A stretch of DNA of 64,000 bases from an uncultured Chlamydiales bacterium (GTDB lineage Bacteria > Chlamydiota > Chlamydiia > Chlamydiales > JAAKFR01), in assembly GCA_963699155.1 (NCBI GenBank), contig OY969414.1:363757-427756 (forward strand). The letters run 5' to 3'. The position numbers were made by a program, and so were the translations under genes. Within the stretch, counting starts at the first letter, position 1, and each line of letters begins with the position of its first letter. This document shows positions 1-54,891 of this stretch, in pieces. The notes below the pieces were generated by a model. It had not been told where the DNA came from. It made no database searches and saw only the letters and a list, made by a program, of their open reading frames with translations.

Positions 1-705
1 ACCGATCATAGAGAGTTTATGGCTATGCACAGGGGCTCCCGAAATTTTGGGGATAAAATAGTAGGCAGCTGCCAAACCCATCGGAGTGAAGATGAGACCG
101 ACAAGATTGTGCACATAAAAGAAGCTGGTGTTGACGCGTGAAATACCCTGTGGCACCCACTCGACTGCAAAATTGCCCACAATGAAGGTGAAGGTGGTCC
201 AGACCAATGTGCCCATGACATACCAGACAGAGACATACATCTGTTGGTGGCGACGTCTCAGAATGGTCATCATCAGATTGACCGCTATGAGAACCCAGGC
301 AAAAGCGATCAAGAGCTTGATGGGAAGAAAGCCAAAGAGCCATTTTGGCATCTCTGCATACTCCCAGCCAAAGTTGTTTCCTAAAGGAAGAGAAAAGGCC
401 CCTAGAATGAGCGTGGGCCACCATATAAAGCTGGCAATCGTGGCCAACTTTACACTCCATAGAGGGACGCCACATAGTCTTGGGATAAAATAGTACATCA
501 GTCCGATGTTAGAAGAGAGAAGCCATAATAGCGTGACCACAGTGACATGGACCGGCCGCACTCTGCCGAAATGGATATATTCGCCAGCAAATGTGTCGGG
601 CTTCAAAAATCCATTGTAGGAGAGAAAAATCCCGATGAAGAGGCCCACCAGTAAAAAGAGGATAGCTGGGTAGAGCATCTGTTTGACAGGCAGATCATTG
701 TACAT
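1..705 (-). CDS. ccoN: cbb3-type cytochrome c oxidase subunit I (N-terminal part; runs off window edge)
   Basis: Not in ORF track. Manual translation from ATG at 705: MYNDLPVKQMLYPAILF...HFGRVRPVHV...QMYVSVWY...FYVHNLVGLIFTP...YYFIPKISGAPVHSHKLSMIG, matching the CcoN FGRLRPxH and GHNAVG..YYFxPK motifs; start overlaps the upstream gene's stop. Confidence 0.88.
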   Translation of the reverse strand, partial: MYNDLPVKQMLYPAILFLLVGLFIGIFLSYNGFLKPDTFAGEYIHFGRVRPVHVTVVTLLWLLSSNIGLMYYFIPRLCGVPLWSVKLATIASFIWWPTLILGAFSLPLGNNFGWEYAEMPKWLFGFLPIKLLIAFAWVLIAVNLMMTILRRRHQQMYVSVWYVMGTLVWTTFTFIVGNFAVEWVPQGISRVNTSFFYVHNLVGLIFTPMGLAAAYYFIPKISGAPVHSHKLSMIG

Positions 706-3391
706 ACTTATCTTCCCATTTCGCTTTAAAATTGGTGTAGAGCTTTTTCTCCGCTTCGTCCCGAGCCTCTTCGACCTTCTTATCGAGTAGATCTGAAAAA
801 GCTTTACTTGAGCCTTTGCCTTCAATCAGCATGAGCAATGTTTGAATCACTTCGTCTGAAAAACCAGAGCTGATCGCTTGCTCGCCAAAGGCTGCGTAGA
901 GCTCTTTTTTACTTTTGATTGCGGCAATCTGCGTTTGATAATCTTCGCCCTCGCGATAATTTGCGTATACCTTTTGAATGGCGACATCAAATCGGTTGTA
1001 AAGGATCTCTTCGAGTTTGGTGCGCCAACAACCGGAGCGAGTCAAGTTGCGAATATAAAGAACGAGCTGCATACGTTGTGCAGCCGTTGTCTGATCCCCC
1101 CAAGGAGTCATCGCAGTGCCTGGAACGCCATATTTGATGGAGCGGAGTAGGCGCAGGTCATCCCTTGTTTGGATCCAGGGGAGATTGGTCAACATGCGCG
1201 GTTTTGCTTCCACCATGGAAGTGGCCCTGGGGCCTGTTCCTGTACCATCGTTGCCATGACAGGAGGCGCAATTGAGACCAAATAGCTGCTGGCCCGCTTC
1301 TAGATTGTCTGAGGTATAAAAGGCCTCTCGAATAAAGAGAGCGCCTGGGGATTTTTCTATAAAATAGCTAAGTTCATCATTTGGCTTAGGCAGCAGAAAA
1401 GACTTTTCCTTTTTCATCTCAGCCACGATATCCTCGGGCATATAGCGCCATTTGGCATCAGAGGCCACCTTTCGAGGGTCATAAGGGATGCCTTGATAGA
1501 GCCAATCGACGAGCTGCTCTGCTTGGGAGGTAGTGAGAACCCCTTTTCCCCATGGGGGCATCGGAGTGCCAGGGACGCCATGGAGCACCGATTCCACAGC
1601 TTTCTCTTTCGTCAAATGGGTTAAGAAGGTAGGATCCCGTAAATTTTTGGGAATCGGATAGATCCACTCCGCAATCACACCATTTCCTTGCCGCTGTCCC
1701 CCATGGCAGGAGCTGCAGAGCTGTTCATAGGCGAGGGCCGGGTTGAAGCCTTGCTCTTGGCAGACCTCCTGTAAAGCCTCTTGATTTTTCTGGCCGAATT
1801 GATGTAGCAGATGACTCAGCATATAGAACTTAGAATCGTCGAATGGTAAGGCGGGCATGATCGATCGCGCTGTGTAAGCGTTGGGATTACGGAAATGGCC
1901 AAGCAACCATGCATCATCTCGATAGAGGCCACTCCAATGAAGATGGGGAGCGATATCGCGTCCTAAACCATATTCTTCGATAAATGCGAGAAGCGCTCTG
2001 TGGAGCCGCTCTTGATTCTCATGATCCAATACCCTTGCAGCGTACTTGAAGGGGGTATAGAAGCTTTCAATCAAACCCGGGTGATGCGCATCGATCTCTT
2101 CGATCATGCCCTGCCGCTTGGAGTCGATATGAATGCGCGCGTCGATCTCTTCCGACAGATCAACCATTTTCTGGACTAACTGTGAACCCGAGAGCTGTTC
2201 GGGAAACTCTTCTCGAAACCAGGGGCGATCCGTGTTGACAGCGTTTGTGGTAAAGCCGCGCAGTTTATGGCAGGAGGCACATCCTTCACTGGCAAAGATC
2301 ATCTGCCCTTCGCGAGTGTCGCGGATGGCAATTGGGTTGACAGGCTCCTCCCAGGGCAGTTTTGCTCCTTTCTCCCATTCGCTCAAATGGATCGTATAAT
2401 CCATTTCAGATACCGCTTTGTTATTTCCTTTCTGAGCCATTAGGAAGGTCATCAGAGCAGCTATTTCTTCATGATCGAGCCGGAAATTGGGCATCGACGA
2501 TGAGGGAAGGTCAGCTTGAGGCCAGACGATCGACTCTTTCACATACCAGGGGTAGCTATTTCCCTCTTGAGTGAGCTCAGGACCGACAGAGGCACGAGAG
2601 TATCCAGAGATGCGGTGGCAACTGTAGCAGCCTTGTGAGACAAAAAGTTCTTTGCCTTGCACATAAGTGGGGGTCATTTGATCGACAACTTGACTTTTTG
2701 TAGGTTGGTGGCACTGGACACAATTGGCGGCGATGAGGGGCCCTGCCAAAATCGGCGTTGTTTGGAAGATGAGATCGTGGGAGGGCTTATCGTTGTACAT
2801 TCTGGAAAATGTAGGATCATGGTCAGGATCGACTTCAGTAAATTGTGGCTTGTGGCTACTATAAAAAGGCTTATAGGAGCCATCGTAGACGGGCCCATGA
2901 GCTCTTTCGGCGACGAGCGATCTTCCATTGCCGCTATGACAGCTGGAGCAGCCATACTGATCGAGCGGATGAAACTGAAAGGGGCGAGTCTCTCCTGGCA
3001 TCAGAGGGTGCATCTGCAGCACTTTTTCGAGATTCACAGGCTTCCCATCGACTTGCATGGTTTTGAAAGAGTCATCTACCCTATTCCAGATATAGTCGGG
3101 GGATGTTGGTGAAAAATGGGGAAGGTCGATGGCCACATGGCAAGAGGTGCAGCGATCGATTGTCTCAGGACCACCAGAGGGGTTATTGATCAGAATCTGT
3201 TTGATGCCTTTCTGAAAGGGAGCAGGCGCTTCACCCGTATAGGTAGAGCGGAATTTTTCAAGCTCGACATAGACATTCTGATACTTCTTATATTCGGGAA
3301 AGAGCTCTTGATAGACAAAGAGTCCAATCCCAATGACCACCAGGCCTGCAAAGAAGATGAGCGCGTATTGATAAAAGTTTTTTGTTTTCAT
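695..3391 (-). CDS. membrane-anchored multiheme cytochrome c (7 CxxCH)
   Basis: N-terminal TM helix; CTSCH, CSSCH, CVQCH, CYSCH, CASCH, CSSCH, CASCH; class I-like distal Met motifs (SSMP, SIMP, TPMP, TAMT). Confidence 0.9.
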   Translation of the reverse strand: MKTKNFYQYALIFFAGLVVIGIGLFVYQELFPEYKKYQNVYVELEKFRSTYTGEAPAPFQKGIKQILINNPSGGPETIDRCTSCHVAIDLPHFSPTSPDYIWNRVDDSFKTMQVDGKPVNLEKVLQMHPLMPGETRPFQFHPLDQYGCSSCHSGNGRSLVAERAHGPVYDGSYKPFYSSHKPQFTEVDPDHDPTFSRMYNDKPSHDLIFQTTPILAGPLIAANCVQCHQPTKSQVVDQMTPTYVQGKELFVSQGCYSCHRISGYSRASVGPELTQEGNSYPWYVKESIVWPQADLPSSSMPNFRLDHEEIAALMTFLMAQKGNNKAVSEMDYTIHLSEWEKGAKLPWEEPVNPIAIRDTREGQMIFASEGCASCHKLRGFTTNAVNTDRPWFREEFPEQLSGSQLVQKMVDLSEEIDARIHIDSKRQGMIEEIDAHHPGLIESFYTPFKYAARVLDHENQERLHRALLAFIEEYGLGRDIAPHLHWSGLYRDDAWLLGHFRNPNAYTARSIMPALPFDDSKFYMLSHLLHQFGQKNQEALQEVCQEQGFNPALAYEQLCSSCHGGQRQGNGVIAEWIYPIPKNLRDPTFLTHLTKEKAVESVLHGVPGTPMPPWGKGVLTTSQAEQLVDWLYQGIPYDPRKVASDAKWRYMPEDIVAEMKKEKSFLLPKPNDELSYFIEKSPGALFIREAFYTSDNLEAGQQLFGLNCASCHGNDGTGTGPRATSMVEAKPRMLTNLPWIQTRDDLRLLRSIKYGVPGTAMTPWGDQTTAAQRMQLVLYIRNLTRSGCWRTKLEEILYNRFDVAIQKVYANYREGEDYQTQIAAIKSKKELYAAFGEQAISSGFSDEVIQTLLMLIEGKGSSKAFSDLLDKKVEEARDEAEKKLYTNFKAKWEDKYVQ

Positions 3392-3429
3392 GTAAGAAAA
3401 TCAATACAACGTGGCAAAGGTTTTATTAA

Positions 3430-3536
3430 AAATTCAACGCAAAGACGCAAAGACGCAGAGACGCTAAGAAAAATAGGGCGCTTCGCGTACCCTCTTTCTT
3501 TGTGTCTCTGCGTCTTTGCGTCTTTGCGTTGAATTT
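3430..3536. repeat. REP/MITE-like palindrome with 33-bp perfect arms
   Basis: AAATTCAACGCAAAGACGCAAAGACGCAGAGAC (3430-3462) is the exact reverse complement of 3504-3536. Confidence 0.9.
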
Positions 3537-3561
3537 CCATATAGAATTACGGCTCGCTGCT

Positions 3562-4890
3562 TTAGTGTTTGGCAAAGTTTTCGGTCCAAGGCCAGATCCA
3601 GGCCCAATTGGGTCCTCTAAAAAAGACACCGATGACGACAAGAACCCCTTGCACAGTCATAAAGGCGGTGTAGAGAAAAATGGCGAGATAGCGGCTGCGG
3701 TGGAACCAGACCCCTTCACCGTAAGGGTTGCGATCAAAATAGGGGATGAGGGCGAGGCCGATGACAATGAGGGAGGGAATGGCAACGCCACCCCAGAAGG
3801 CATTATAAGCCACCATCTCCTGAAGTCCTAAGAAATACCAAGGTGCTTTTGCCGGATTGGTCGGCTTGGAGGGGTTGGCAATCTCCTCTAGAGGCGCATC
3901 AATGAAGAGCGAGAGAAGGAGCACCAGGAGAGTTGTGCCTAGAAATACGACGAGCTCCGCTCTTAAAAGGTGGGGCCAGGTAAAGATATAGTTTTCGGGC
4001 CCACGATCTACTGTTGGGCATGAACCGCGCACCAGCTCCATCAAGCCGTAGGTACGTCTAAGGCCCGGTGCAAAGGTCTCTTTGGTATCAGAGCGCTGCA
4101 CCACACGGTAAGGATCGGGGCGCACTTGATCGGGAGCTCTCGCTAATCCCCCATCTTTGCGGATGCGCCAAAAGTGAACACCGAGGAGGGTCCCTGCCAA
4201 CAACGGGAGCACCATGACATGGAGGACATAGAAGCGAATCAGGGCATCTTGGCCCACAGTTGTAGATCCTAAAAGCATCAATTTGTTGATGTTATATTGC
4301 ATGCCCGGGATTCCCGGCACATAGCCAGCAATTTCGGAACCGACAGTGATTGCCCAGAAGGCCAATTGATCCCAGGGGAGAAGATAGCCAGTAAACGAAA
4401 GAAAAAGGGTGACGACCATTAAGAGGACGCCGATCACCCAATTGAACTTGCGCTCTCCTTTATAGGCTCCCATATAAAAGACGCGGCTCATATGGAGGAA
4501 GACGAAGAGCACCATCAACTGCGCACTCCATCGATGCATATTGCGCCACATCATGGCAAATGGGGTGGTGTCGAGCCAATCGACCAAGATAAGATAGGCA
4601 CGATCGACGGCGGGGATGTAGAAGAACATGAGGACCACACCGGTGATCACTAAAATGAAAAAGAGAGAAGCGGTGATCGTACCGAGCCCTAGGGTGTGGA
4701 GAGGATCTGTTACTTTTTTGTGGCATTTGACGGGATGGATATGGAGAAAGAAGTTTTTAAAGATAACCTCCGACCTATCGACATCGTTGTTAGGATAGCG
4801 ATGTCGAAAAATGGAACGTAGAAATCTGACTGGAAAGGTCTCCACCAGTTCTAAGAATGATTCTTTTTTTCTTCCTTTAAAGGTTGCCAT
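3562..4890 (-). CDS. petB: cytochrome b (b6-like domain fused to subunit IV-like domain) of a Rieske/cytb complex
   Basis: MHRWSAQLMV..LHMSRV, SFTGYLLPWDQ, RFYVLHVMVLP..GVHF heme ligands; PAKAPWYF (PEWY equivalent); start set to ATG 4890, just after the Rieske stop. Confidence 0.92.
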   Translation of the reverse strand: MATFKGRKKESFLELVETFPVRFLRSIFRHRYPNNDVDRSEVIFKNFFLHIHPVKCHKKVTDPLHTLGLGTITASLFFILVITGVVLMFFYIPAVDRAYLILVDWLDTTPFAMMWRNMHRWSAQLMVLFVFLHMSRVFYMGAYKGERKFNWVIGVLLMVVTLFLSFTGYLLPWDQLAFWAITVGSEIAGYVPGIPGMQYNINKLMLLGSTTVGQDALIRFYVLHVMVLPLLAGTLLGVHFWRIRKDGGLARAPDQVRPDPYRVVQRSDTKETFAPGLRRTYGLMELVRGSCPTVDRGPENYIFTWPHLLRAELVVFLGTTLLVLLLSLFIDAPLEEIANPSKPTNPAKAPWYFLGLQEMVAYNAFWGGVAIPSLIVIGLALIPYFDRNPYGEGVWFHRSRYLAIFLYTAFMTVQGVLVVIGVFFRGPNWAWIWPWTENFAKH

Positions 4891-4894
4891 ATTT

Positions 4895-5389
4895 TTACAC
4901 CGTCGGTGAATACCATGCCTCATGGGCCAGAGCGACCTCCTGGCTTTTATCGACCAGGAGTTCTCCTGAAGCCCCTTTATAAATTTTGTAATAGACAAGT
5001 GGCCTTGGAGCCGGCCCTCCAGTATTTTTTCCATCTGTACTATAGGTGGAACCGTGGCAGGGACACTTAAAACCGGTCTCCACAGCATTGATGGTGCATC
5101 CCAAGTGGGTACAGATGGCCGTCATGCAACGGACGCGCCCTCGAGAGACTTCTAAAAAGACCTTTTGAGCAGGGAGAAAGACCCTTCCTTCCGACGAGAG
5201 CACATCAACAGGCCTGCCTATGGAGAATACACTGGGAGGGATCTTTAACGCATTGGGATAGAGAAAACCTAATATCGCTGCGCCCAAAAGGCCTCCGACG
5301 CTCGCCACAGCTCCCCAACCGATCAATGACAGGAAGCGCCGACGTGACATTTTGTTTTCATCGTTTAAGCTATTCCGGAATTTAGGCAT
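4895..5389 (-). CDS. Rieske [2Fe-2S] subunit
   Basis: Tat motif SRRRFL plus TM helix; CTHLGC and CPCHGSTY boxes; GGPAPRPL loop; start ATG 5389 (or 5350). Confidence 0.93.
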   Translation of the reverse strand: MPKFRNSLNDENKMSRRRFLSLIGWGAVASVGGLLGAAILGFLYPNALKIPPSVFSIGRPVDVLSSEGRVFLPAQKVFLEVSRGRVRCMTAICTHLGCTINAVETGFKCPCHGSTYSTDGKNTGGPAPRPLVYYKIYKGASGELLVDKSQEVALAHEAWYSPTV

Positions 5390-5525
5390 CTTCTTTCTCT
5401 CTAAACATTTGATATTTGGGATCTTCTGGATCTTCGAACTGCCCACGTCGGATGTAATAGAGGAAGACGAGGAGTCCGCCCAAACCACCCACTAGCGTCA
5501 AAAGCAAAAACCAGAACACTTCCAT
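5382..5525 (-). CDS. ccoS: cbb3 oxidase maturation protein CcoS/FixS-like (47 aa)
   Basis: Manual translation MEVFWFLLLTLVGGLGGLLVFLYYIRRGQFEDPEDPKYQMFREKEDA*; single TM plus GQF(E/D)D motif; TGATG coupling to upstream stop. Confidence 0.75.
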   Translation of the reverse strand: MEVFWFLLLTLVGGLGGLLVFLYYIRRGQFEDPEDPKYQMFREKEDA

Positions 5526-7357
5526 CAGCCTATCCACCTAAAAGAGTAGTTCATCAGATCCATCGTCACCGCTTGCGTGGGGCATTTTTCAGCGCAGAGA
5601 CCACAACGGATGCAGAGATCCTCATCTTTAAGCATGGCAGATCCAAGGAGATCCAATTCCTGTTCAGAGATCGCAGCCGAATCGATTCCATAGTGGTTGT
5701 CGACCGCTTTTCGTAACTCTCCATGGCCCAGATCGAGATTCATTTTTGAGAGCGGAATCAGCTTGAGACAATTGGTAGGGCAGACGTCGACGCAGCCATT
5801 GCATTTGATGCAGAGGCTTCCATCAAACACTGGCGAGACATGGCACTGCAAACAGCGCCCTGCCTGCTCATGCACCTCTTTGGGAGAATAGTTGTTTTCG
5901 ACCAAATTGAGATTGCGTCGTCTCAGGTGTGCAGGCTGGCCAGAAGGCAGTGCCCAGGAGGTGCGCAGGTAGCTCTTATCCCTTTGAGGAGGGATCGTCA
6001 TAAAGAGACCGACAAACTCTTGGTAAGGCCTTGTCCCTCTCAAATCAGCATCGATGGCCCTTGCCGCCTCTTGTCCATGGCGGACCGCAGTGATAAAAAG
6101 CGCCGGTCCAAAGGCTGCGTCGCCTCCTGCATAGATCCCTTTGACAGAGGTCCTTCCGCTCCCTTTTTCTGTTTTAAGGATGCCCCGCTCCATGGTCAAT
6201 TCACCTTTTTTGTCCCAACCATCGAAAAGGCTGAGATCCATCGCCTGGCCAATCGCAAGCGCGATCGTATCACAAGGGATGACATATTCCGTTTCAGGAA
6301 TGAATGTAGGGGCAAATTTCCCATCGGCATCGAAAAGAGTATAGACCCTTTGGACTTTGATACCACAAATTTTCCCCGCTCCATTCCTCTCGACATCGAC
6401 AGGGCCTACGCGATTGATCAGCCGAATGCCCTCTTCAATGCCATCCTCGATCTCAAATTCATCGGCTGTCTGTTCATTTCTGGATTCGAGGCAGATCATC
6501 GTCACCGATTCAGCCCCATTTCTCACAGAAGAGCGCGCCACGTCGAAGGCAACATTGCCGCCCCCCACAACAACGACATGTTTGCCAATTTTCCACTTCT
6601 CATGAGCATTGAGAACCCTTAAATACTCGACGCCGCGGATGACATCGGCCTCTTCGAAGCTGGGAATGGGCAGATCGCGCGATTTCCATAAACCATTTCC
6701 CAAAAAAATGGCATCGAACTGCTCTTGCAGCTCTGTGAGCGTGATATCGCGGCCCACCTTGGTGTTGTAATGGATTTTGGCGCCCAAATGCTCGATCGCC
6801 GCGCACTCATGGATGGGAATCTCATTTTTCAAGCGGTAATTGGGCACACCATAGACCAGCATTCCGCCCGGCATCGCCATCTGTTCGAAGAGCTCTACCT
6901 GATACCCCAAGCGCAAAAGATCGTGAGCGCAGGTCAGCGAAGCCACTCCCGCACCCACAGAGGCCACTTTCAAGCCATTTGGCTGAGGCTTTGTAGAACC
7001 CCTCGCATAGCTATATTCGAGCGACTTGATGTGGGCCTCCCTATCCAGCCCAAACCATTCATCCAGATACCTTTTCTGCGCCCGTATCGTCAGCGTCTTG
7101 TCAACCCGATCTCTCCGGCAGGCCATCTCGCACGGCGCCCCGCAGATAATCCCACAGACCGAAGCAAAAGGATTTGGCCCACGCGCAATCTTATATCCCT
7201 CCAACAAATTCCCCGACCGTATGGCCAACATATAGCCCCTACCATCGGTATTGACAGGGCATCCATCCCTGCAATCGATCTGTCGAATGAAATAGGCAAG
7301 ATCTGGGATGACTACATCATAAACTTCGCGGTAAGCCTTCTTAATCTTCTCATCCAT
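5525..7357 (-). CDS. FAD/NAD(P)-dependent oxidoreductase, GltD/DsrL-like, with C-terminal 2x[4Fe-4S] ferredoxin domain
   Basis: CRDGCP and CGIICGAPCEMAC Fe-S motifs; VGAGVAS FAD site; VVGGGNVAFD NAD(P) site; CIKCNGCVDVCP and CIRCGLCAEKCP. Confidence 0.9.
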   Translation of the reverse strand: MDEKIKKAYREVYDVVIPDLAYFIRQIDCRDGCPVNTDGRGYMLAIRSGNLLEGYKIARGPNPFASVCGIICGAPCEMACRRDRVDKTLTIRAQKRYLDEWFGLDREAHIKSLEYSYARGSTKPQPNGLKVASVGAGVASLTCAHDLLRLGYQVELFEQMAMPGGMLVYGVPNYRLKNEIPIHECAAIEHLGAKIHYNTKVGRDITLTELQEQFDAIFLGNGLWKSRDLPIPSFEEADVIRGVEYLRVLNAHEKWKIGKHVVVVGGGNVAFDVARSSVRNGAESVTMICLESRNEQTADEFEIEDGIEEGIRLINRVGPVDVERNGAGKICGIKVQRVYTLFDADGKFAPTFIPETEYVIPCDTIALAIGQAMDLSLFDGWDKKGELTMERGILKTEKGSGRTSVKGIYAGGDAAFGPALFITAVRHGQEAARAIDADLRGTRPYQEFVGLFMTIPPQRDKSYLRTSWALPSGQPAHLRRRNLNLVENNYSPKEVHEQAGRCLQCHVSPVFDGSLCIKCNGCVDVCPTNCLKLIPLSKMNLDLGHGELRKAVDNHYGIDSAAISEQELDLLGSAMLKDEDLCIRCGLCAEKCPTQAVTMDLMNYSFRWIG

Positions 7358-7423
7358 AAAGAGTGAAGACCATACCACAGGGGCCCGGTCATTTCAAATT
7401 TGAAATCACGGAGTTTCTATTTT

Positions 7424-9421
7424 CTATTCGGGGCCACCGAGACGGAGCTCGGTGTTGGTGAATTGGTGCATGAGGTCGCGGTAGCGGGCGGCATCTTCGA
7501 AGCGATACTCCTTGGCGGCCTGTTTCATCAGCCGTTCGTACTCGCGGATCTTTTGTTCGAGATCTTTTTGGGTGAGATATTCTTGGGGCTTCTCGGCAGC
7601 GAGAGAAGCTGCGCCGATGGGTACTTCTTTGGCGCCCATTTCGATGCCAAGGTCGCGTTTGATCGTTCTGGGGATGATGTTGTGTTCTTCATTATAAGCG
7701 ATCTGAATGCGGCGGCGTCTTTCGGTTGTGGTGAGGGTGCTTTTGATGGCGGTAGTCATCTTGTCAGCATACATGATGACGCGGCCCTCACTATTGCGTG
7801 CGGCCCGTCCGCAGGTTTGGATGAGAGCGGTTTCGCTGCGTAGAAAGCCCTCTTTGTCGGCGTCGAGGATGGCGACGAGGGAAACTTCGGGAAGATCGAG
7901 CCCTTCACGGAGCAGGTTGATGCCGACGAGAACGTCAAAGGTGCCGAGGCGTAGGTCTCGAAGGATTTGGACCCGCTCGAGTGTATCGATATCGGAGTGG
8001 AGATATTTGGCTTTGACATCGAGCTCGATGAGATACTTGGTAAGATCCTCGGCTAAACGCTTCGTGAGCGTGGTAACGAGGACGCGGCCTCCTCTTTCGG
8101 TGTGGGCGCGGATCTCTTCTAGGGCATCGTCGACCTGTCCATTGGCAGGGCGAACCTCGATGAGGGGATCGAGAAGGCCTGTCGGGCGGATGATCTGCTC
8201 GATGATCTCGCCCGCACTCTCGGCGACCTCCCATTTACCAGGCGTTGCCGAGACAAAAACGACCTGCTTCATCCTTTCATGGCTCTCCTCGAAGCGCAAA
8301 GGACGATTATCATATGCTGAAGGGAGGCGGAAGCCGAAATCGACTAAGGTCTGTTTGCGCGCACGGTCCCCATTGTACATGGCATGCAATTGGGGAATGG
8401 AGACATGGCTTTCGTCGATGACGAAGAGGAAGTCATTTGGGAAATAGTCGAGAAGGGTGGGAGGCGCATCTCCGGGACCTCTTCCCGAGAAGTGGCGGGA
8501 GTAATTTTCGATCCCCTTGCAAAAGCCGATCTCTTTGATCATCTCGAGATCGTATTGGGTCCTTTGTTGGATCCTCTCCCTTTCTAACAGCTTATGCTCC
8601 TGCTCAAAGAAGGCCATCCGCTCCTGAAGCTCCTGCTGGATAGTGATGTAGGCCTGCCGGCGTACATCTTCGGGTGTGACATAGTGCGAGCCGGGATAGA
8701 GGGTAAACTGGCTCAATCGCTCCTTGATTTTACCGGTGAGTGGATCGATCGCGCTGATCCTTTCGATTTCGTCGCCAAAAAATTCGATGCGGTAAGCGAG
8801 ATCTTCTTCATAGGCAGGATAGACCTCCAGGACATCCCCACGAACCCTAAAGATTCCCCTGAAAAAATCGTAATCATTCCGCTTATAATGCATCTCCACA
8901 AGGTGGAGGAGCATCTCATCGCGCCGTTTACTTGCTCCCACTTCGAATTCTAAAAGCATCTTTGCGTAGTGTTCAGGCAAACCCAAACCATAGATGCAAG
9001 AGACCGAGGCGACGATGATCACATCGCTCCTCTCGATCAAGGAGCGCGTCGCTGAAAGACGCATCTTGTCGATCTCATCGTTGATGGAGAGATCTTTTTC
9101 AATGTAGGTGTCTGTGCGAGGGATGTAGGCTTCGGGCTGATAGTAGTCGTAATAGGAGACAAAATACTCGACAGCATTCTCGGGAAAAAAGCCTTTAAAC
9201 TCCTGATAGAGCTGTGCAGCGAGAGTTTTGTTGTGGGCAAGAACGAGCGTCGGTTTCTGCACCTTCTGGATCACATTGGCCATGGTAAAGGTCTTTCCCG
9301 ACCCTGTTATCCCGAGCAACACTTGCGCTTTTTTGCCTTCGACAATGCCTTGGCTGATCTTTTCGATCGCTACAGGCTGGTCGCCGCAGGGTTGAAATTC
9401 GGTATGAAGTTTAAACTCCAT
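7424..9421 (-). CDS. uvrB: excinuclease ABC subunit B
   Basis: [40 protein letters not shown]-terminal UVR domain. Confidence 0.98.
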
Positions 9422-10466
9422 ACTCTCTAGCCACACGCGAAATCTTGTTCCAGCTACCCACCAAGCCCATCGCCGCGCGCATCTCTTTGACGGTCTCTGC
9501 AGCCACGTCGCGCATCTTTAAAGTTCCCTCGTAGATGACCTTCTCGATATAGCCTTTTCGACCTTCAAACTCTTTACGCCGTTGACGGAATGGCTCCAGG
9601 TATTGGTTGAGAACCTCTGCGAGGCGCGCCTTTATCTCGAGATCGCCGATCTTGCCCTCTCGGTACCGTTTTTTGAACTCCTCCACCTCGTCGAGGTTAG
9701 GGTTAAAGGCTTCGTGGTAGATAAAGAGAGGGTTCCCTTCCACTGTGCCTGCCACATGGGCGTGAATCCGATTGGGATCGGTAAACATCCCTCGAACCTT
9801 TTTTTCGACACTCTTGGCATCATCAGAAAGGAAGATGACATTGCCGGCCGATTTGCTCATCTTGCCCTTGCCATCAGTCCCGATGAGTGAAGGAGTTTCA
9901 CTGAGCATCACTTCAGGGGGAGGAAAGACATCTCCATAATATTGGTTAAAGCGGCGGGCGATATCGCGCGCCAATTCGATGTGAGCCTCATTATCTTTAC
10001 CCACAGGCACCAGATGGGCCTTTGGAAGCAAAATGTCAGCTGTTTGGAGGACAGGATAACCGAGGAGGCCAAAGGGAATGCTCTCTTCGGGGATATCGGC
10101 ATTGCGCGCCATCTCTTTCAAACTGGGTAAACCGGTGAGGCGGTTCACCGAAACCAGCATCTCGAAAATCAGATTCATCTCGTAAACTTCGGGAATGGCT
10201 GATTGAAGATAGATGGTGCAGCGCGTGGGATCGATCCCGCAAGAGAGCCAATCGAGAACGGCATCTAGGATATGGCTGCGCATCTCAAGAATCTGTTCAC
10301 GCTGCGGCTTAGTTGTCAGTGTGTGGAGGTCGGCGATAAAAAAATAACAGTCGTAAGCTTCTTGTAGAGCCACACGATTTTTGATGGAGCCTAACCAATG
10401 GCCAAGATGGAGTTTTCCTGTGGGCCTATCACCTGAAATAATTCTTTTTTTTGAGTTATTATCCAT
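9411..10466 (-). CDS. trpS: tryptophanyl-tRNA synthetase
   Basis: [35 protein letters not shown]. Confidence 0.97.
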
Positions 10467-11661
10467 AGGATCCAAAAACCTCAATCACTAACAAAAAGAG
10501 AGAGAGCGTAACAGTGCCGATGAGAAGTGGTTTCCCACCGGGGACCTGAAAAGAACTCTCTTCTTTGACACGGTACCTTTCAAACCATGCCATAAGAGCG
10601 GGCAGAAGCGCTAGAAGAATCACGACGAAAATTCCGGCATATTTCAAGGCCATAATAAAGCCTCGAGGGTAAAAGAGGGCGAAGAGCAAAGGGGGAATAA
10701 AAGTCAGCAAAACCAAGAAAAATTTTCCTAATTGCGTCTTGCGAATGTTTAAGCCATCAGCAAGGAAGTCGGAGAGACTGAGCGACACTCCTAAAAGTGA
10801 GGTAACGATGGCGAAAAAGGCGAAGGTGCGGACAGAAATTCCCACCCAGCGGCTCTCTAAAATCTGTTCTAAGAAGGCTGTCACCTGTAAGCCACCCTGT
10901 GTAGCAGCTTCTGTGAGGCTATGTTCACCGTAAACGGGAACAACTCCCATGACGAGCAATTGCCAGAGAAGATAGACGACAAAGGGGATCAGGCTGCCGA
11001 TAAAAATTGCCCTTTTGAGGAGTTTGACATCATGCTCTAGATAGGTTGTCAGGGTGGGAATGATGATGTGATAGCCGAAAGTGGTGAGCACGACCGACAA
11101 AGAGGGGTAGAGATAACTCCAACCGACATGGCTCAGCAACGTCGGTTTGATATAGCTGCTTCCTATAAAGATCAAAATGAGATAGGCGGCCACCAAACCA
11201 ATCATCATCAAGCGATTGAGAAAATCGGTGATTCCCGTTCCTAAATAAACAAAGGTTCCAAAAAAGATAAAAATGGCAATAGGCCAGCTCCTTTCAGGGA
11301 TCTGGAAGGAGAAGAGCTGTTGACAAACATCGCTCAGAATCTGGCTGCAACCTAAAAGGTAGGCCGAAGTGAGAGAGTAGAGGAGGAGCAAGTAGGAGAT
11401 CCAGGCAATAACCTCTCCGGGGCGTCCGAGAGTTTTACGCATCATTGAAATGAGATTGCTCTCTCCTTTCATTCTGAGATTGATCTCTAAGAAGTAAAAG
11501 GCGGTCAGCATCATGAAGAGCCAGATAGCCGTCATGATGGCAAGGGATGGCAAAAAGCCAGCGAGACCCGTTGTGACGGGTAGGGCCAACATGCCGGCGC
11601 CGATGGTAGTACCGGAGACGAGCAAAATGGCTCCCACCATTTTGTTGCGCTTGCTGATCAC
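10459..11661 (-). CDS. tyrP: aromatic amino acid permease (TyrP/Mtr family)
   Basis: [25 protein letters not shown], multiple TM segments. Confidence 0.9.
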
Positions 11662-12902
11662 GGAAGGAGCACCTCAGCTTCTTCCATAGGAATCAAAGAG
11701 AAGCCGCACTCTTGGGCACCTTCCAGAAGAAAAATGGAAACAGCGATAAAGATCACAGCAATCAAAGCAGGACGGCCCCAGGGATACATGGAAGCCATCT
11801 GCGCACGCCTTTTGTAGCGGAGTATCCAAACCATCAGTACTGGCATGACTCCAAAAAGGATGACGGCAGAAAAGCCTCCAGCTATATTCAAAGCGGTAAT
11901 GAAGAGACCAGGATAGGCAAAAGCAAAGGCAAAAGGAGGGATAAGAGAGAGCATCACCAGTAAAACCCTGCCCATTCCAACTTTAGGAATTTTCAATCCA
12001 TCGGAGAGGAAATCGACCAGCGAGAGCGATTGTGCCAGAAAAGAGGTCGTTATGGCAAAGAGGGCAAAAGCTTGGGCCACCGTGTTGATCCATGATCTTC
12101 CCACAACAGCACGTAGCGCCTCTGTCGCCACCTCTCCCTTATCGAGAGCCGATAAGAGCCCACTCCTTCCTTCAATCGGAATAATGCCCAGCATGACCGC
12201 CTCCCACAAGATATAGATGAGAAGGGGGATCAAGCTTCCTACCAATACCGTAATGCGCAACCGTTTGACATCTCCCTTCAGGTACATCGCAAGCGTTGGA
12301 ATCATGTTGTGGAAGCCAAAGGAGATCACCAATACAGGCAGCGCAGCAAACGAATATTTCCAGACATTGACAGCGAGATAACTTGCCTGAATATGTGCAC
12401 TTCCTAACAAAATCAGGATGCAGTAGGCAACGATCAACCCCACCATGAGAAGGCGATTCAAGTAATCGACAGGCTTTGTCCCCAAGTAGATGACAATGCC
12501 AAAGATCACAGTGAAGAGGATGCTGCCCCACATTTCGGGCAATTCCCAGCCGAAAAGGTCGTTAACAATGACCTTTAAAATGGAGCCACTCGCTGCTATG
12601 TAGGCGATGCTGAGCGAATAGAAGAGGAAAATGAAGAGAAGCCAGCACAAAAACTTTCCCGTTTTTCCCAAAGTGCGTTCGGCAATAGAAATCAGGCTCA
12701 GGTTATGGCCAATGGCCAAATTGGCCTCTAAAAGCAACAAACTGGTGCTGGTCATGAATAACCAAGCAATCAGCAGCATCACGATCGACGGTCCAAACCC
12801 AGCCACTCCGGTAATGACCGGCAGCGCCAACATCCCCGCCCCAATGCAGCTACCCGCAATGAGGAGGATTCCCCCTAAAACGCTTCCATGTTTTGTATTC
12901 AT
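11658..12902 (-). CDS. tyrP: aromatic amino acid permease (TyrP/Mtr family), second paralog
   Basis: [25 protein letters not shown], multiple TM segments. Confidence 0.9.
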   Translation of the reverse strand: MNTKHGSVLGGILLIAGSCIGAGMLALPVITGVAGFGPSIVMLLIAWLFMTSTSLLLLEANLAIGHNLSLISIAERTLGKTGKFLCWLLFIFLFYSLSIAYIAASGSILKVIVNDLFGWELPEMWGSILFTVIFGIVIYLGTKPVDYLNRLLMVGLIVAYCILILLGSAHIQASYLAVNVWKYSFAALPVLVISFGFHNMIPTLAMYLKGDVKRLRITVLVGSLIPLLIYILWEAVMLGIIPIEGRSGLLSALDKGEVATEALRAVVGRSWINTVAQAFALFAITTSFLAQSLSLVDFLSDGLKIPKVGMGRVLLVMLSLIPPFAFAFAYPGLFITALNIAGGFSAVILFGVMPVLMVWILRYKRRAQMASMYPWGRPALIAVIFIAVSIFLLEGAQECGFSLIPMEEAEVLLP

Positions 12903-12960
12903 CCCCAGCAGGATAGCAGAAATTTTGAAAAAAAACAAGGTTATCTGTAACTTCAGAAAC

Positions 12961-51351: not shown

Positions 51352-54300
51352 TTAAGTTTTGGGAATGAAGCCGTAGCGGTGGGTATCGATGCTGAGGGCT
51401 ACCTCGCGCAGGTAGTGGAGCAGCTCGATGCGGCCGTTGGCGAGCACGGGAGAGTCGAGGAGGATGGTCCCCTTCTCGGCGGCTCTGCTCTGGAGGGCGA
51501 AAGAGGGTTTGGTGAGAAGGCGGATGCGGGAGGGATTTCTGCTGAAGAGGTCAAGCTCCTCTTCTTGGGTGACGGTGATGCCGGGGATCTCGTTGAGAGG
51601 GAGGGGGATTGCAGTAGAGATGTCGAGAGGGGTTCCACAGGCCAGACAGGCAGCTACGACCTGTAGGAGGCTGAGAAGGTTTTCGGGTCGTTCATAACGG
51701 ACAGAGGCTTTGGAAAGGGGGATGAGGTAGAAATAGTTATCTTGTCCATAGAGCGAGGAGGGGTCTGTAGGCTCTTTGAGAATGGGTGCCCAGTAGGCAT
51801 AATTCTCAGCGCTTCCTTGCCAAATTTCGCATGCTTTTGGGGATAAATCGAGCGTTTTGATTTTTGGAAGTAGAGGGAGGAGGGCAGGTGGAAGAGAGGC
51901 TTTCTCATGAGGCATCTCTCTCTGAAGCGGGCGAGCCAATTGGTGCACATAATTGGGTCCTCCAGCTTTAGCACCTGATCCAAAACTACTGGCTTTACAA
52001 CCCCCAAAGGGCTGTCTGCGGACAATGGCGCCTGTAATGCCGCGATTGATATAGAGATTGCCAGCTACGATCTTCTCTTTCCACTTCTCCTGCTCCCTCG
52101 GATCGAGACTGTGGAGACCACTTGTCAGGCCATAGGGTGTACCGTTTGCGAGACGGATCGCTTCGTCGAGGGATGCAGCTCTCATCACCCCGAGAACGGG
52201 TCCAAAGAGCTCTGTTTGATGCGTGAAGCTATTTTCTGAAACGCCCCATTTGATGCCGGGGCTCCAGAGGTGAGGATTTTTGGGATCAGCTTTGGGCTGA
52301 AGAAGCCAGCTCTCACCTGGTTCTAGGGTGGTTAATCCCCGCAATAGCGGGCCCATGGGAGGGCGAATCAAAGGAGTGATTTTAGCAGTGGGATTCCAAG
52401 CTGTTGCCACTTTTAGGCTGCTCGCTGCATCTAGAAGCTGCCTTTTAAAGTCGGGATCATCGTAGATTTCGGCTTCAAGGATAGCCAAGCTGCAGGCGCT
52501 GCATTTTTGCCCCGCATGACCAAAAGCAGAGAGGACAATGTCACGCACCGCTAAATCACGATCGCAGAGAGCGGTAGCGATGATGGCATTTTTTCCTCCT
52601 GTTTCCGCATGGAGATCGATTCCAGGACGGAGGTGCATGAAGTGAAGGGCTGTCTGTGTGCTGCCGGTAAGGATGACGCTGCTGATGCTCGGATGTTTGA
52701 TTAAATAGCTTCCCACAGGCTCGTCAGGGCAGTTAATAAAGTGAAGCGCCTCTTTAGGAATGCCGGCCTCCCAAAAGGCTTGGACTAGCTGCCAACCCAC
52801 TAAAACCGATTCAGGTGCCGGTTTGAAAATAACGATGTTTCCTGTCGTCAGAGCAGCTGCAATCCCGTTCACAGGAATCGAGCAGGGGAAGTTCCAAGGT
52901 GGAGCTACCAGAACAGTGCCTTTAGGTTTCCAGCCCAGATCCCCCATTGCCAGCTGTTTTGACCAGTTTTTTCGGTAGTAATCGATAAAATCGATCGCTT
53001 CGGAGACCTCAGGGTCAGCTTCTGAGACCGTTTTCCCCGTATCGGCAATCATGGCGCCAATCAAATCCTCACGCTGCTTTTTCAGCTGCCCAGCTACCTT
53101 TCCGAGGAGGTGTGACCGTTGATCAAAGGGAAGAGAGGCCCACTGCTGCTGATATTGAGAGGCTGCTACAAGGGCGCTGTCGACGTGTGTAATATCGGCG
53201 AGGCTATATCTATAATAGACTTGGTGAGGTTTGGAAGGATCGACTCCTTCACCCACCTGCTCTGTTTGGATCTCTTTGCCACCGATGACTAAAGGGATCT
53301 GAGTGAAGGTTCTCTTTTCCCATTTTTCAAAGATCTGAGAGGCCCATTTGCGATTTTCAGGCAATGAGAAGTCGGTATCGGCTTCATTTTTAAATGACTC
53401 AGTGTCCGAAGGAGGAATAGCTGGGAGAAATCGATTCTGTTTGCGCTTTTTTGCATGCGAGAGAGAATCGATCTTTTTGGAGGCCTCTTTAAAGCGCTCC
53501 GTCTCCTGTCTCCAAGTGGCATTGCCCGGTTGAAGCTCATAAAAGTGGCGCAAGAAGTTTTCAGGGCCACTATTCTCATCGAGTCTGCGAATCAGATAGG
53601 CAACTGCCGTATGGAAATCCTTTCGTTTGGCTTCTGGACAATAGAGGAGTATGCCACCTGCCAACTTCTGGACCACCCTCCTTAAAGGGTTCGCCATCCC
53701 TTCCAGCATTTCGAAGGTGATGAATGGCTCGGTACGATGTTCAGATCTTAAGATAAAGGCGTAAGCAATTTCGAAGAGATTGTGGCTTCCCACCCCAATA
53801 TGAACGGCTTCGGCATGCTCAGGTTGACAAGCATACTCGAGCATCTGTTTAAAATGGGCATCAGTTTCCGCTTTATGGTCGTAAGTGGCCAGCTCCCATC
53901 CTTTGACAGAACTTTCGACACTTTCCATCGACATGTTCGCCCCTTTGACGAGACGGATCTTGATCGGGCCCCCCCCTTTCTGCTTTCTTTCGATCGCCCA
54001 CTCTGTTAAGTCGACCAGAATAGGAAAGGTGTCAGGAAGATAGCTTTGAAGAACGATGCCTGCTGGCGTCTTCCACTGATCGGGCTGGCTGAGAACTTTC
54101 TTAAAGAGATCCACGGTCAGAGCAAGATCCTTATACTCTTCCATATCGAGGTTCACGAATTTGGAGACTTGATGGCCATTGGGAAGTCGGAATGGATGCG
54201 CTTTTGCAGCATCGTAAAGCAGCTTGAGCCGTTCTGAAAGGGTTCTCAAGTTGTCATCGTAGCCCACCATGTTGATTTGGCTGAAAATGGTCGAAATTTT

Positions 54301-54891
54301 GACAGAAACATACTCGATATCTGGGTTTGCGAGGTCTTCGAGATAAACTTTCAGTCGACGCATCGCCTCCTGCTCTCCGAGAATGGCTTCACCGAGATGG
54401 TTGATGTTGAGGCGAATATTCTCTTTATGCGCCTGTTTAAAAAAAGAGGCCTGATCCTTGGGATCTTCCGGGAGAAGCACCTGCTTGGTCTCTTCGGTGA
54501 TCTGCCCACGGATCAATGCCATCAAAAAGTCAGGAAAGCGCTTTCCAAACCACTTAAAGAGGGTGAAGCGAAACCGATCCCATGGTGAAAGAAAGGAGGG
54601 AATCCCATATTTCTTCAGCAGATATACAAGAAGGTCAGCTGTTTTTTTAGCAGAATGGCTGCGGAATACTTGATCTGTCATCTGAGTGGTGAAAGAGCGG
54701 CCTTGTGGATCATTCATCATCCGTGCTAGCCACGCTTCCTGTTTTTTCTCAGCATGGCTCTTTTCTTGAATCGCTTCTTGGAGCAGGAAGGAGGCTAACT
54801 CTATCGATTTCTCAACTCGTTGTTCACGTGTCAGCGAAACGCCCTCAACAGTACGAAGAAGTTCTTTTGCTTGGTTCAAAGGATCAGCCAT
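51352..54891 (-). CDS. putA: bifunctional proline dehydrogenase / P5C dehydrogenase
   Basis: NLDMEEY, RLVKGA, SHNLF, PWNFP, ETGGKN, GQKCSAC, ELFGP, QPFGG. Confidence 0.95.
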   Translation of the reverse strand: MADPLNQAKELLRTVEGVSLTREQRVEKSIELASFLLQEAIQEKSHAEKKQEAWLARMMNDPQGRSFTTQMTDQVFRSHSAKKTADLLVYLLKKYGIPSFLSPWDRFRFTLFKWFGKRFPDFLMALIRGQITEETKQVLLPEDPKDQASFFKQAHKENIRLNINHLGEAILGEQEAMRRLKVYLEDLANPDIEYVSVKISTIFSQINMVGYDDNLRTLSERLKLLYDAAKAHPFRLPNGHQVSKFVNLDMEEYKDLALTVDLFKKVLSQPDQWKTPAGIVLQSYLPDTFPILVDLTEWAIERKQKGGGPIKIRLVKGANMSMESVESSVKGWELATYDHKAETDAHFKQMLEYACQPEHAEAVHIGVGSHNLFEIAYAFILRSEHRTEPFITFEMLEGMANPLRRVVQKLAGGILLYCPEAKRKDFHTAVAYLIRRLDENSGPENFLRHFYELQPGNATWRQETERFKEASKKIDSLSHAKKRKQNRFLPAIPPSDTESFKNEADTDFSLPENRKWASQIFEKWEKRTFTQIPLVIGGKEIQTEQVGEGVDPSKPHQVYYRYSLADITHVDSALVAASQYQQQWASLPFDQRSHLLGKVAGQLKKQREDLIGAMIADTGKTVSEADPEVSEAIDFIDYYRKNWSKQLAMGDLGWKPKGTVLVAPPWNFPCSIPVNGIAAALTTGNIVIFKPAPESVLVGWQLVQAFWEAGIPKEALHFINCPDEPVGSYLIKHPSISSVILTGSTQTALHFMHLRPGIDLHAETGGKNAIIATALCDRDLAVRDIVLSAFGHAGQKCSACSLAILEAEIYDDPDFKRQLLDAASSLKVATAWNPTAKITPLIRPPMGPLLRGLTTLEPGESWLLQPKADPKNPHLWSPGIKWGVSENSFTHQTELFGPVLGVMRAASLDEAIRLANGTPYGLTSGLHSLDPREQEKWKEKIVAGNLYINRGITGAIVRRQPFGGCKASSFGSGAKAGGPNYVHQLARPLQREMPHEKASLPPALLPLLPKIKTLDLSPKACEIWQGSAENYAYWAPILKEPTDPSSLYGQDNYFYLIPLSKASVRYERPENLLSLLQVVAACLACGTPLDISTAIPLPLNEIPGITVTQEEELDLFSRNPSRIRLLTKPSFALQSRAAEKGTILLDSPVLANGRIELLHYLREVALSIDTHRYGFIPKT

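Follow-up and report, generated by a model that had tools for sequence, protein, structure and literature searches.

The window analysed here, a stretch of 64,000 nucleotides from an uncultured Chlamydiales bacterium (contig OY969414.1, positions 363,757 to 427,756), carries at its left end a respiratory operon for a flavoprotein, the assembly factor CcoS, a Rieske protein, a cytochrome b, a seven-haem cytochrome c and a cbb3-type oxidase. This operon is an old and conserved respiratory unit of eight or nine genes, and it very probably constitutes a self-contained chain from menaquinol to oxygen. The flavoprotein is predicted to be a bound subunit of the Rieske/cytochrome b module, which we consider likely, and we infer that the chain is coupled to NAD(P)(H). 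Judged by its sequences, the operon is an O2-linked variant of a known, biochemically unassayed kind of Rieske/cytochrome b complex. The reading that we favour, and hold to be reasonably probable by analogy with such complexes, is that of a quinol-to-oxygen chain with bound flavoprotein that would bifurcate electrons towards NAD(P)+.

Six genes of the operon lie within the window, intact and co-oriented on the minus strand, namely those for the flavoprotein, CcoS, the Rieske protein, cytochrome b, cytochrome c and CcoN (Table 1); a preliminary description of the window had listed the same six, and its identifications agree with the Pfam and NCBIfam matches and with the motifs. The first gene encodes what we infer to be a GltD/NfnB-type NAD(P)-FAD iron-sulfur protein with at least four Fe-S sites, which combines a Fer4_20 domain with Rossmann domains for FAD and NAD(P) and a C-terminal ferredoxin domain for two clusters. 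Its best solved relatives are chain A of 9bov and 9bp5 (279 bits), followed by NfnA/NfnB and GltD; the N-terminal two-cluster domain and the FAD/NAD(P)H domains of NfnAB/NfnABC and GltD match at 181-279 bits, whereas the C-terminal 2x[4Fe-4S] ferredoxin domain and a CxxC pair at residues 509-512 are additions of the protein described here. The Cys motifs, including this pair, are invariant among 35 aligned sequences. Unlike NfnAB and GltD, the protein has a membrane cytochrome b, and not NfnA or GltB, as its predicted partner, and since it lacks any hydrophobic segment it is taken to be cytoplasmic. The NCBIfam match (PRK12771, 389 bits) lies under the cut-off of 516, and databases give the protein generic names.

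The Rieske protein exhibits the cluster boxes CTHLGC and CPCHGSTY, a twin-arginine motif (SRRRFL) and one membrane helix. Its top matches in the Protein Data Bank (PDB), 9rk3 and 9rk4, are Kustd1480 and Kuste4569 of Kuenenia according to the available text of PMC12954380; with these as its two best solved matches, the parallel to anammox complexes drawn in the preliminary description holds. Box II contains a Ser/Tyr pair in G000, as the present genome is designated, and in all 22 chlamydial loci, and in non-chlamydial loci it contains Ser/Phe (26) or Ser/Tyr (4). Because the Ser/Tyr pair has been tied to potentials of 300-350 mV (PMC3509893, available part), we read the protein as a high-potential type. 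The quinone is probably menaquinone, because the genome contains two genes of the MqnA/D family. A high-potential Rieske protein operating with menaquinone is unusual, and this very combination has been put forward, in the part of PMC12954380 at hand, as an argument for a b haem of very low potential.

In cytochrome b, a four-helix part like b6 and a part like subunit IV are joined in one chain (PF00033, 128.8 bits), and its best PDB matches are cytochrome b6 chains (130 bits; query residues 69-247 correspond to b6 residues 36-210). Among 32 aligned cytochrome b sequences the b-haem ligands H119, H133, H224 and H239 are invariant. An N-terminal extension of 68 residues is almost invariant among chlamydiae, and its His50 is conserved in all 32 sequences, which represent eight phyla and include 12 that are non-chlamydial; in the Kuenenia models, as given in the accessible portion of PMC12954380, His43/His62, located near the N-terminus of cytochrome b, could bind an additional haem at the interface. 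The Cys that binds haem cn in cytochrome b6 (Cys35) has no counterpart, since at residue 68 the 20 aligned chlamydial sequences all have Gly, and the non-chlamydial ones have Gly (8) or Tyr (4); the one nearby Cys, C56, is found in the chlamydiae alone. The module thus resembles cytochrome b6f and the ‘green clade’ menaquinol:cytochrome c reductases (group A2 of PMC3509893) in that b6 chains are the best solved relatives of its cytochrome b, in the subunit-IV-like C-terminal part and in a Rieske protein most like PetC, and it differs from them in the fusion of b6 and subunit IV, the extension with its invariant His, the missing haem cn Cys, a multihaem cytochrome c in place of cytochrome f, and the added flavoprotein. 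An identity with Geobacter ExtP/ExtQ was considered and rejected, both scores being under the equivalog cut-offs (NF040969, 232.2 bits versus 290; NF040970, 70.7 versus 150).

The seven CXXCH motifs of the cytochrome c are located at residues 81, 148, 224, 255, 371, 559 and 708, and Pfam recognises Cytochrome_CBB3 in three stretches, a FixO stretch and an MtrC-like domain. The protein combines a multihaem N-terminal part with class-I C-terminal domains that are CcoP-like (TIGR00782 and PDB CcoP chains). Seven motifs recur in 18 of 20 relatives, one further relative having them split 6+1 and one having six. With 898 residues the present cytochrome is much shorter than these 20 relatives (1078-1390 residues), the difference lying between the haem domains.

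CcoN can be assigned with the help of its structural relatives: all five of its PDB matches are CcoN chains of cbb3 oxidases, and alignment with 3mk7_A reveals that RPvH, HN.vG, Y...G.HH and GH.H are kept, with the His ligands of haem b, haem b3 and CuB and the cross-linked Tyr of helix VII aligned, at a TIGR00780 score (272.7 bits) under the cut-off of 583. Beyond the left edge, where the preliminary description had proposed to look for ccoO and ccoP, ccoO is indeed found (Table 1), the FixO domain making up the C-terminal third of its product, with PF02433 at 78.6 bits (cut-off 29.6), its CXXCH motif at residue 303, and TIGR00781 at 63 bits, under the cut-off. A separate dihaem CcoP has no gene in the operon; PF13442 matches occur inside the 898-residue cytochrome alone, and FixP_N (PF14715) gives no match at the locus. 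CcoO itself carries an N-terminal extension of ∼250 residues (about 45-290) that is conserved in 20 of 20 chlamydial loci, where the protein measures 392-447 residues as compared with 190-220 in two non-chlamydial loci; the extension matches no Pfam family, and its best ESM Atlas scores (0.77 and 0.76) are uninformative. When compared with the CcoNOQP oxidase of Pseudomonas stutzeri (3mk7), the operon thus shares the CcoN ligands, a monohaem CcoO and ccoS, whereas CcoP is replaced by class-I domains ending the seven-haem protein, CcoO is extended, CcoQ is weakly recognisable and equivalog cut-offs are missed. In the bc1-cbb3 supercomplex CIII2CIV of Rhodobacter capsulatus (6xkw, 6xkx and 6xkz are among the matches) a Rieske/cytochrome b complex likewise feeds a cbb3 oxidase. 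The bc1 and cbb3 complexes of R. capsulatus are encoded apart and joined by cytochromes c2/cy, whereas here a single operon and a single seven-haem protein provide the link, and an NAD(P) flavoprotein is added.

The remainder of the genome bears on how firmly these parts are wired to each other. A search with PF13442 over the whole genome located class-I cytochrome c domains inside the 898-residue protein and nowhere else, and by these searches the seven-haem protein and CcoO are the sole c-type cytochromes and CcoN is the sole enzyme that requires them. The other haem-copper oxidases are Cyo-type quinol oxidases, present in two sets whose CyoB scores (996 and 944 bits) narrowly miss the cut-off of 1020, while CyoA and CyoC exceed theirs in one of the sets; cytochrome bd is present as a fourth oxidase. 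For cytochrome c maturation, a CcsA gene is over the cut-off (74.4 and 72.1 bits) and has directly upstream a gene for a membrane protein of 350 residues that reaches 19.7 bits with ResB, the cut-off being 24.6; Pfam ResB gave no match above threshold over the whole genome, and CcmE was not found in it. The maturation genes that the preliminary description had proposed to look for are represented by CcsA and its weakly ResB-like neighbour. Because cytochrome c domains occur in the 898-residue protein alone, because the other oxidases are of the Cyo and bd types, and because ccsA stands beside a ResB-like gene, we regard the chain as hard-wired, and the earlier proposal that the Rieske/cytochrome b pair feeds the cbb3-type oxidase is supported. 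Both nqrA and putA are located inside the window. PutA (1179 residues; window 51352-54891, minus strand) is a proline dehydrogenase-aldehyde dehydrogenase fusion and a further feeder of the quinone pool. The two Cyo sets lie 5 kb apart (G000:C1:2160248-2169641) and have CyoB-like proteins of 657 and 652 residues; four terminal oxidases (two Cyo, bd and cbb3-type) are thus encoded in an endosymbiont genome of 2.4 Mb.

To place the operon within its phylum, 401 Chlamydiota genomes, G000 included, were searched with three queries. The flavoprotein was found in 85 (E <= 1e-20; full-length orthologues 70-83% identical), cytochrome b in 88, two of which have a different type (36-37% identity), and CcoN in 95 (E <= 1e-15). 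Flavoprotein and cytochrome b are 70-91% identical across many families, and the module is present in about one fifth of the genomes, belonging to families f1 (15 of 22), f21 (37-42 of 46), f24 (6 of 6), f27, f31 and f20. Families f19 (0/30), f8 (0/90), f22 (0/35) and f36 (0/17) gave no match to any of the three queries, and in f5 flavoprotein and CcoN were not found in any of the 69 genomes, two of which hold the different cytochrome b (36-37% identity). With genomes of 1.0-1.2 Mb, f19 presumably represents the Chlamydiaceae, and its negative result agrees with the earlier statement that these have no bc complex.

Flavoprotein and orthologous cytochrome b occur together in 84 of the 401 genomes (again counting G000), the flavoprotein alone in one and cytochrome b alone in two; in one of these two (G191) the contig ends before the flavoprotein, and in the other the match starts at base 3 of its contig. 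Of the 83 other genomes with both, 80 have the two genes on a single contig; the distance between them has a median of 694 bp and is <=1 kb in 71 cases (for three fragmented genomes the piece on the shared contig was used for this measure). The comparison of gene order that the preliminary description had called for was made with 20 loci from 14 families, picked for having all three matches on one contig, and the order flavoprotein-ccoS-Rieske-cytochrome b-multihaem c-ccoN-ccoO-small open reading frame (ORF) is fixed in all 20, with ccoS always at the same position. Five loci from genomes that have CcoN but no match to flavoprotein or cytochrome b were also inspected: three keep ccoS-ccoN-ccoO alone, one also the seven-haem gene (G175), and one ccoN alone; in four of five chlamydial loci with loss of the bc part the flavoprotein was lost along with it. 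The loci retaining ccoS-ccoN-ccoO without the flavoprotein, Rieske and cytochrome b genes are those of G085 (L124, with a Rieske remnant), G175 (L125), G234 (L127) and G118 (L128), and in G374 (L129) cytochrome b, and nothing else, was lost. The bc part of chlamydiae has thus been lost repeatedly while ccoNO stays.

The same association is encountered far outside the phylum. Among representatives of clusters at 50% identity, the flavoprotein matches a single chlamydial cluster (72% identity), the next match being at 45%; of the ten nearest non-chlamydial clusters, one could be given a taxon, Nitrospirota. A genome scan using an alignment of distant flavoprotein relatives yielded 80 loci, two of them chlamydial. 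Outside the chlamydiae, 30 loci representing at least 11 phyla have the flavoprotein gene beside those for a Rieske protein and/or cytochrome b, usually with a multihaem cytochrome c after them; the phyla named in the record titles comprise Acidobacteriota, Verrucomicrobiota, Planctomycetota, Ignavibacteriota, Nitrospirota, Actinomycetota, Zixibacteria, Eisenbacteria, Abyssobacteria and others. Two of the 30, L038 (Ignavibacteriota) and L048 (Holophagaceae), also possess ccoN and ccoO. Five further close relatives of the flavoprotein are located at contig ends or, in two Capsulimonadaceae loci, are solitary, and the other 43 loci encode GltD-like proteins of different kinds, the majority of considerably greater length (most 770-1,500 residues as called ORFs). 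Quick maximum-likelihood trees unite the chlamydial sequences in a single long-stemmed clade, with an SH-aLRT support of 100 in the flavoprotein tree (21 rows) and of 99 in the cytochrome b tree (20 rows), and the two trees recover the same main groups. L038 and L048 are among the rows nearest to the chlamydiae, at weak support (82-86), and Verrucomicrobiota are placed elsewhere. The flavoprotein from a Planctomycetes metagenome-assembled genome (MAG; L092), for which an anammox origin is a guess, sits on a long branch apart from the clade that is linked to Rieske/cytochrome b.

These observations speak to whether the flavoprotein belongs to the complex at all. It could instead be a separate soluble enzyme, such as an NADPH:acceptor oxidoreductase or a redox sensor, that is co-transcribed with cytochrome b and does not bind to it; such an enzyme would be expected to have no membrane segment and would sit well with the generic database names and with the two Capsulimonadaceae loci that have relatives away from any Rieske/cytochrome b genes. 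We consider this improbable, as the gene is adjacent to those for Rieske protein and cytochrome b over at least 12 phyla and is lost jointly with the bc genes, the trees of flavoprotein and cytochrome b are congruent, it is in precisely these complexes that cytochrome b has its strongly conserved cytoplasmic extension at the N-terminus, and the homologous Kuenenia subunits are treated as parts of a complex in the available text of PMC12954380. It is on account of linkage, co-occurrence, the 30 non-chlamydial loci, matching trees and joint loss that we assign the flavoprotein to the bc module.

The trees also bear on the horizontal acquisition proposed in the preliminary description. With one clade on a long stem, a single ancient event before the families split is plausible, and one such acquisition, for which no donor is named, would fit the trees; a recent acquisition is not what they indicate, and the presence of the operon in this genome is a matter of ordinary inheritance. 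Nor can the operon be called a new energy-metabolism module for the lineage, given its occurrence in about one fifth of the 401 genomes, its fixed order, and the fact that bc and cbb3 of chlamydiae are already in print; as the 2012 listing, PMC9816063 and the 401-genome survey attest, it is largely described and widespread in Chlamydiae. The cytochromes b of Parachlamydia acanthamoebae and Waddlia chondrophila were assigned to group A2, which also contains Kuenenia 1 and 2, and lateral transfer was invoked (PMC3509893, 2012). A cbb3 oxidase (CcoO/N) was inferred for the chlamydial ancestor, and cytochrome bc (PetBD) was considered to have been gained before the common ancestor of Criblamydiaceae, Waddliaceae and Parachlamydiaceae (PMC9816063), while respiratory genes of Protochlamydia are induced at a late stage (PMC5451489); the available portions of these three sources are the basis of this account. 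In searches that covered neither subscription journals nor supplements, no paper was found to connect an NAD(P) flavoprotein with the complex of chlamydiae, the available passages of PMC9666466, PMC11460067, PMC3578206, PMC4013037 and PMC3899948 contained nothing of relevance, and the word stem ‘chlamyd’ does not occur in the available text of PMC12954380. Hence, novelty lies in the flavoprotein link alone, which is poorly described for chlamydiae.

The closest described systems are the Kuenenia stuttgartiensis complexes Kuste4569-4574 and Kustd1480-1485, for which the available text of PMC12954380 presents the NAD(P) oxidoreductases, a proposal of bifurcation, and AlphaFold3 models with an extra interface haem. 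They share with the operon described here a cytoplasmic FAD/Fe-S NAD(P) oxidoreductase, a Rieske protein, a b6-like protein plus subunit IV and a multihaem cytochrome c; both Rieske proteins have Ser in box II, and both flavoproteins match the same PDB entry, 9bp5, described in that text as a structural homologue of Kuste4570. In contrast to Kuenenia, b6 and subunit IV are fused here, the cytochrome c has seven haems and not six or eight, an HAO-like subunit is missing, the flavoprotein gene comes first and the haem cn Cys is absent. The exergonic acceptor also differs, being O2 here by way of the co-encoded cbb3-type oxidase and not nitrite. What the NAD(P) oxidoreductase does in the anammox complexes has, according to PMC12954380, been debated since its role was proposed.

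The mechanism that we favour can then be outlined as follows. The Tat-exported, high-potential Rieske protein and the fused cytochrome b6/subunit IV would oxidise quinol and pass electrons to the membrane-anchored seven-haem cytochrome c, which would replace cytochrome c1/f, the soluble carrier and CcoP together; from there, electrons would proceed via the extended CcoO to CcoN and O2, with a CcoQ-like peptide taking part and CcoS aiding assembly. The flavoprotein would dock at the cytoplasmic face of cytochrome b and exchange electrons with the low-potential b-haem chain, and an extra haem on the invariant His50 may be involved, by analogy with the models of the Kuenenia complexes. Quinol oxidation would be bifurcated at the outer quinol site, such that the downhill electron to O2 pays for the uphill one to NAD(P)+. 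Bifurcation is favoured because a high-potential Rieske protein is combined with a probable menaquinone, and because of the published anammox logic; a net direction towards NAD(P)H is nonetheless a tentative proposition, argued by analogy, to which we give somewhat less than even credence.

Several points weigh against this reading. It is not obvious why chlamydiae, being heterotrophs, should need reverse electron flow. The ligand of haem cn, a haem that features in the anammox models, is absent, and the wiring may differ. The AlphaFold2 monomer of cytochrome b is of moderate confidence (mean pLDDT 64, pTM 0.69), its N-terminal helices included, and ccoN, ccoO and the flavoprotein all score under their NCBIfam equivalog cut-offs. 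Two Capsulimonadaceae loci (L059 and L111) hold a close relative of the flavoprotein with no Rieske or cytochrome b gene nearby, and nine of the 95 CcoN-positive genomes have no flavoprotein or cytochrome b match, so that the oxidase can outlive the bc module. Finally, a palindromic repeat parts cytochrome b from cytochrome c in this genome, and in the same-genus relative G002 the operon is split by three genes on the opposite strand. This split (L018, 10133-15178) lies between the seven-haem gene and ccoN and consists of aconitase and two ORFs without a Pfam family.

The same complex might also run in reverse, with electrons passing from NAD(P)H via FAD and the Fe-S clusters to the inner b haem and to quinone at the inner site, so that the flavoprotein would be an electron-input module and the complex would contain an NAD(P)H dehydrogenase of its own, supplying its Q cycle and the cbb3 oxidase. 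Such a path would be downhill all along from NAD(P)H to menaquinone and O2 (potentials as given in the available part of PMC12954380). The carriers (chlamydiae, Acidobacteriota, Verrucomicrobiota) are heterotrophs rich in NAD(P)H, and the linkage evidence would fit equally well. Set against this are the presence of NqrA, which already provides for NADH oxidation, and the Ser/Tyr high-potential Rieske protein with menaquinone, which suits a generator of very low-potential electrons and which an input module does not need. Taken by itself the reverse reading is unlikely, and it is nearly as likely as bifurcation.

Returning to bifurcation, one may go a step further and consider the operon an O2-driven, quinol-bifurcating NAD(P)+ reductase that makes NAD(P)H without spending membrane potential, a proposal that we put forward as speculation and hold to be rather doubtful. 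Per menaquinol, one electron would travel from the Rieske protein through the seven haems and the cbb3 oxidase to O2, and the other would pass the b haems, an extra interface haem and then four Fe-S clusters before it reaches FAD to yield NAD(P)H. If this were true, the anammox design would represent one branch of a widespread aerobic device shared by chlamydiae, Acidobacteriota, Verrucomicrobiota, Ignavibacteriota and others, and this device would be open to study in culturable aerobes. Anammox bacteria are hard to work with, and the same three-part module is found in aerobic or microaerobic heterotrophs of many phyla, which may offer tractable systems with a defined exergonic partner (O2) for testing bifurcation to NAD(P)+. 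Module and terminal oxidase are joined in one operon in chlamydiae, in one Ignavibacteriota MAG and in one Holophagaceae MAG. Published chlamydial schemes (PetBD, CcoO/N), which in their available text omit the flavoprotein, the seven-haem link and the absence of CcoP, are refined accordingly.

As first described, the cluster is located directly beside the core gene uvrB (Table 1), and a chimeric assembly near position 7400 had been feared. That the cluster might be such a chimera, or a recent foreign island fused to uvrB, has in its favour the caution of the preliminary description alone and the circumstance that no read or contig has been placed over 7378-7424. Three contig sets from one soil-metagenome study hold small shares of this DNA (0.09-0.15); their matching pieces measure 36-258 nt, many of them identical, and none spans 7378-7424; no RNA data set was listed among the sequencing runs that contain this DNA. 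Because the genome is a single closed contig (2,399,326 bp, 47.5% G+C, rated 100% complete) and because the assembly G002 of the same genus repeats the order trpS-uvrB-flavoprotein, we regard a chimera as very improbable. Moreover, G+C amounts to 0.48-0.53 along the cluster and over the junction against 0.475 in the genome, with no step in composition, the opposite flank carries Chlamydia-specific CT_584-like and UPF0137 genes, and the orthologues form one chlamydial clade. Among the 20 chlamydial loci inspected, uvrB is upstream of the operon in just the same-genus genome, and the position beside uvrB is a genus-specific part of the arrangement.

Table 1. Genes and other features of the operon and its surroundings (window positions unless prefixed by G000:C1)
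Feature	Position	Strand	Remarks
uvrB	7424-9436		45-66 bp upstream of flavoprotein gene
Flavoprotein	5525-7357 (ORF to 7378)	-	610 aa from Met8; Fer4_20, Pyr_redox_2, two Fer4
ccoS (FixS)	5382-5537	-	51 aa; PF03597 33.1 bits, cut-off 23.1; cbb3 assembly factor
Rieske [2Fe-2S] protein	4895-5350 (ORF to 5488)	-	151 aa from Met47 ‘MSRRRFL’; PF00355
Cytochrome b	3562-4890 (ORF to 5088)	-	442 aa from Met67; PF00033 + PF13631
Spacer between cytochrome b and cytochrome c	3392-3561		170 bp; palindromic repeat of ∼105 bp
Seven-haem cytochrome c	695-3391	-	898 aa; one N-terminal hydrophobic helix; exactly seven CXXCH
ccoN, 5' part	1-705	-	runs 707 nt past left edge; PF00115 285.9 bits (whole protein)
ccoN, whole ORF	G000:C1:363049-364581	-	510 aa
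ccoO	G000:C1:361832-363175 (L002:13832-15175)	-	447 aa; FixO domain, one CXXCH
FixQ-like ORF after ccoO			outside window; 53 aa; weak FixQ match, 13.9 bits, cut-off 29, E 0.053
Conserved membrane ORF after FixQ-like ORF			outside window; 65 aa

The start of the flavoprotein is probably Met8, as alignments with relatives begin at residue 7-15 and the database product is 610 residues long; the Rieske protein likely starts at Met47, and cytochrome b is taken to start at Met67 because its relatives align only from residue 64-67; the longer 508-residue ORF (3562-5088) was rejected as an over-extension. The ccoS gene shares 13 nt with the end of the gene for the flavoprotein, and CcoS matches TIGR00847 at 21.7 bits, under the cut-off of 28.35. 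The membrane ORF at the end of the operon has no relevant Pfam match. A sequence scan returned promoter-like sites (6 versus 8.3 expected) and terminator-like sites (10 versus 10.4 expected) at chance level.

The repeat-bearing spacer is a lineage insertion outside the conserved module: the gap between cytochrome b and cytochrome c is <=26 bp, or an overlap, in 17 of 20 other chlamydial loci (42 bp in L030 and 514 bp in L024), and the repeat is dispersed genome-wide (142 blastn high-scoring segment pairs). It could act as an intra-operon hairpin. Its arms are units of the GCAAAGACGC type. The repeat is also encountered downstream of the operon (G000:C1 ∼361282-361590), and it gives rise to spurious ORFs with peptides such as ‘TQRRKDA...’ and ‘SLRLCVFA...’. 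An ORF of 71 residues (3426-3641) was rejected as a gene, as it belongs to no family, overlaps cytochrome b and lies on the repeat.

Past the end of the operon, on the opposite strand, follow genes for an OTU protease, tatC, the CT_584-like protein, UPF0137 (pGP6-D family), parA and thrS. Close homologues bear the names Chlamydiales, Protochlamydia, Parachlamydiaceae and Waddliaceae, and other chlamydial traits of the genome are a topoisomerase I-SWIB fusion, a GreA of 735 residues and duplicated Trp/Tyr permeases. The two permease genes are arranged in tandem (window 10459-12938, minus strand) beside trpS and upstream of uvrB. Near the right end of the window, a homologue of the RPE65-family carotenoid oxygenases (386.6 bits) is encoded at 61860-63362 on the plus strand.

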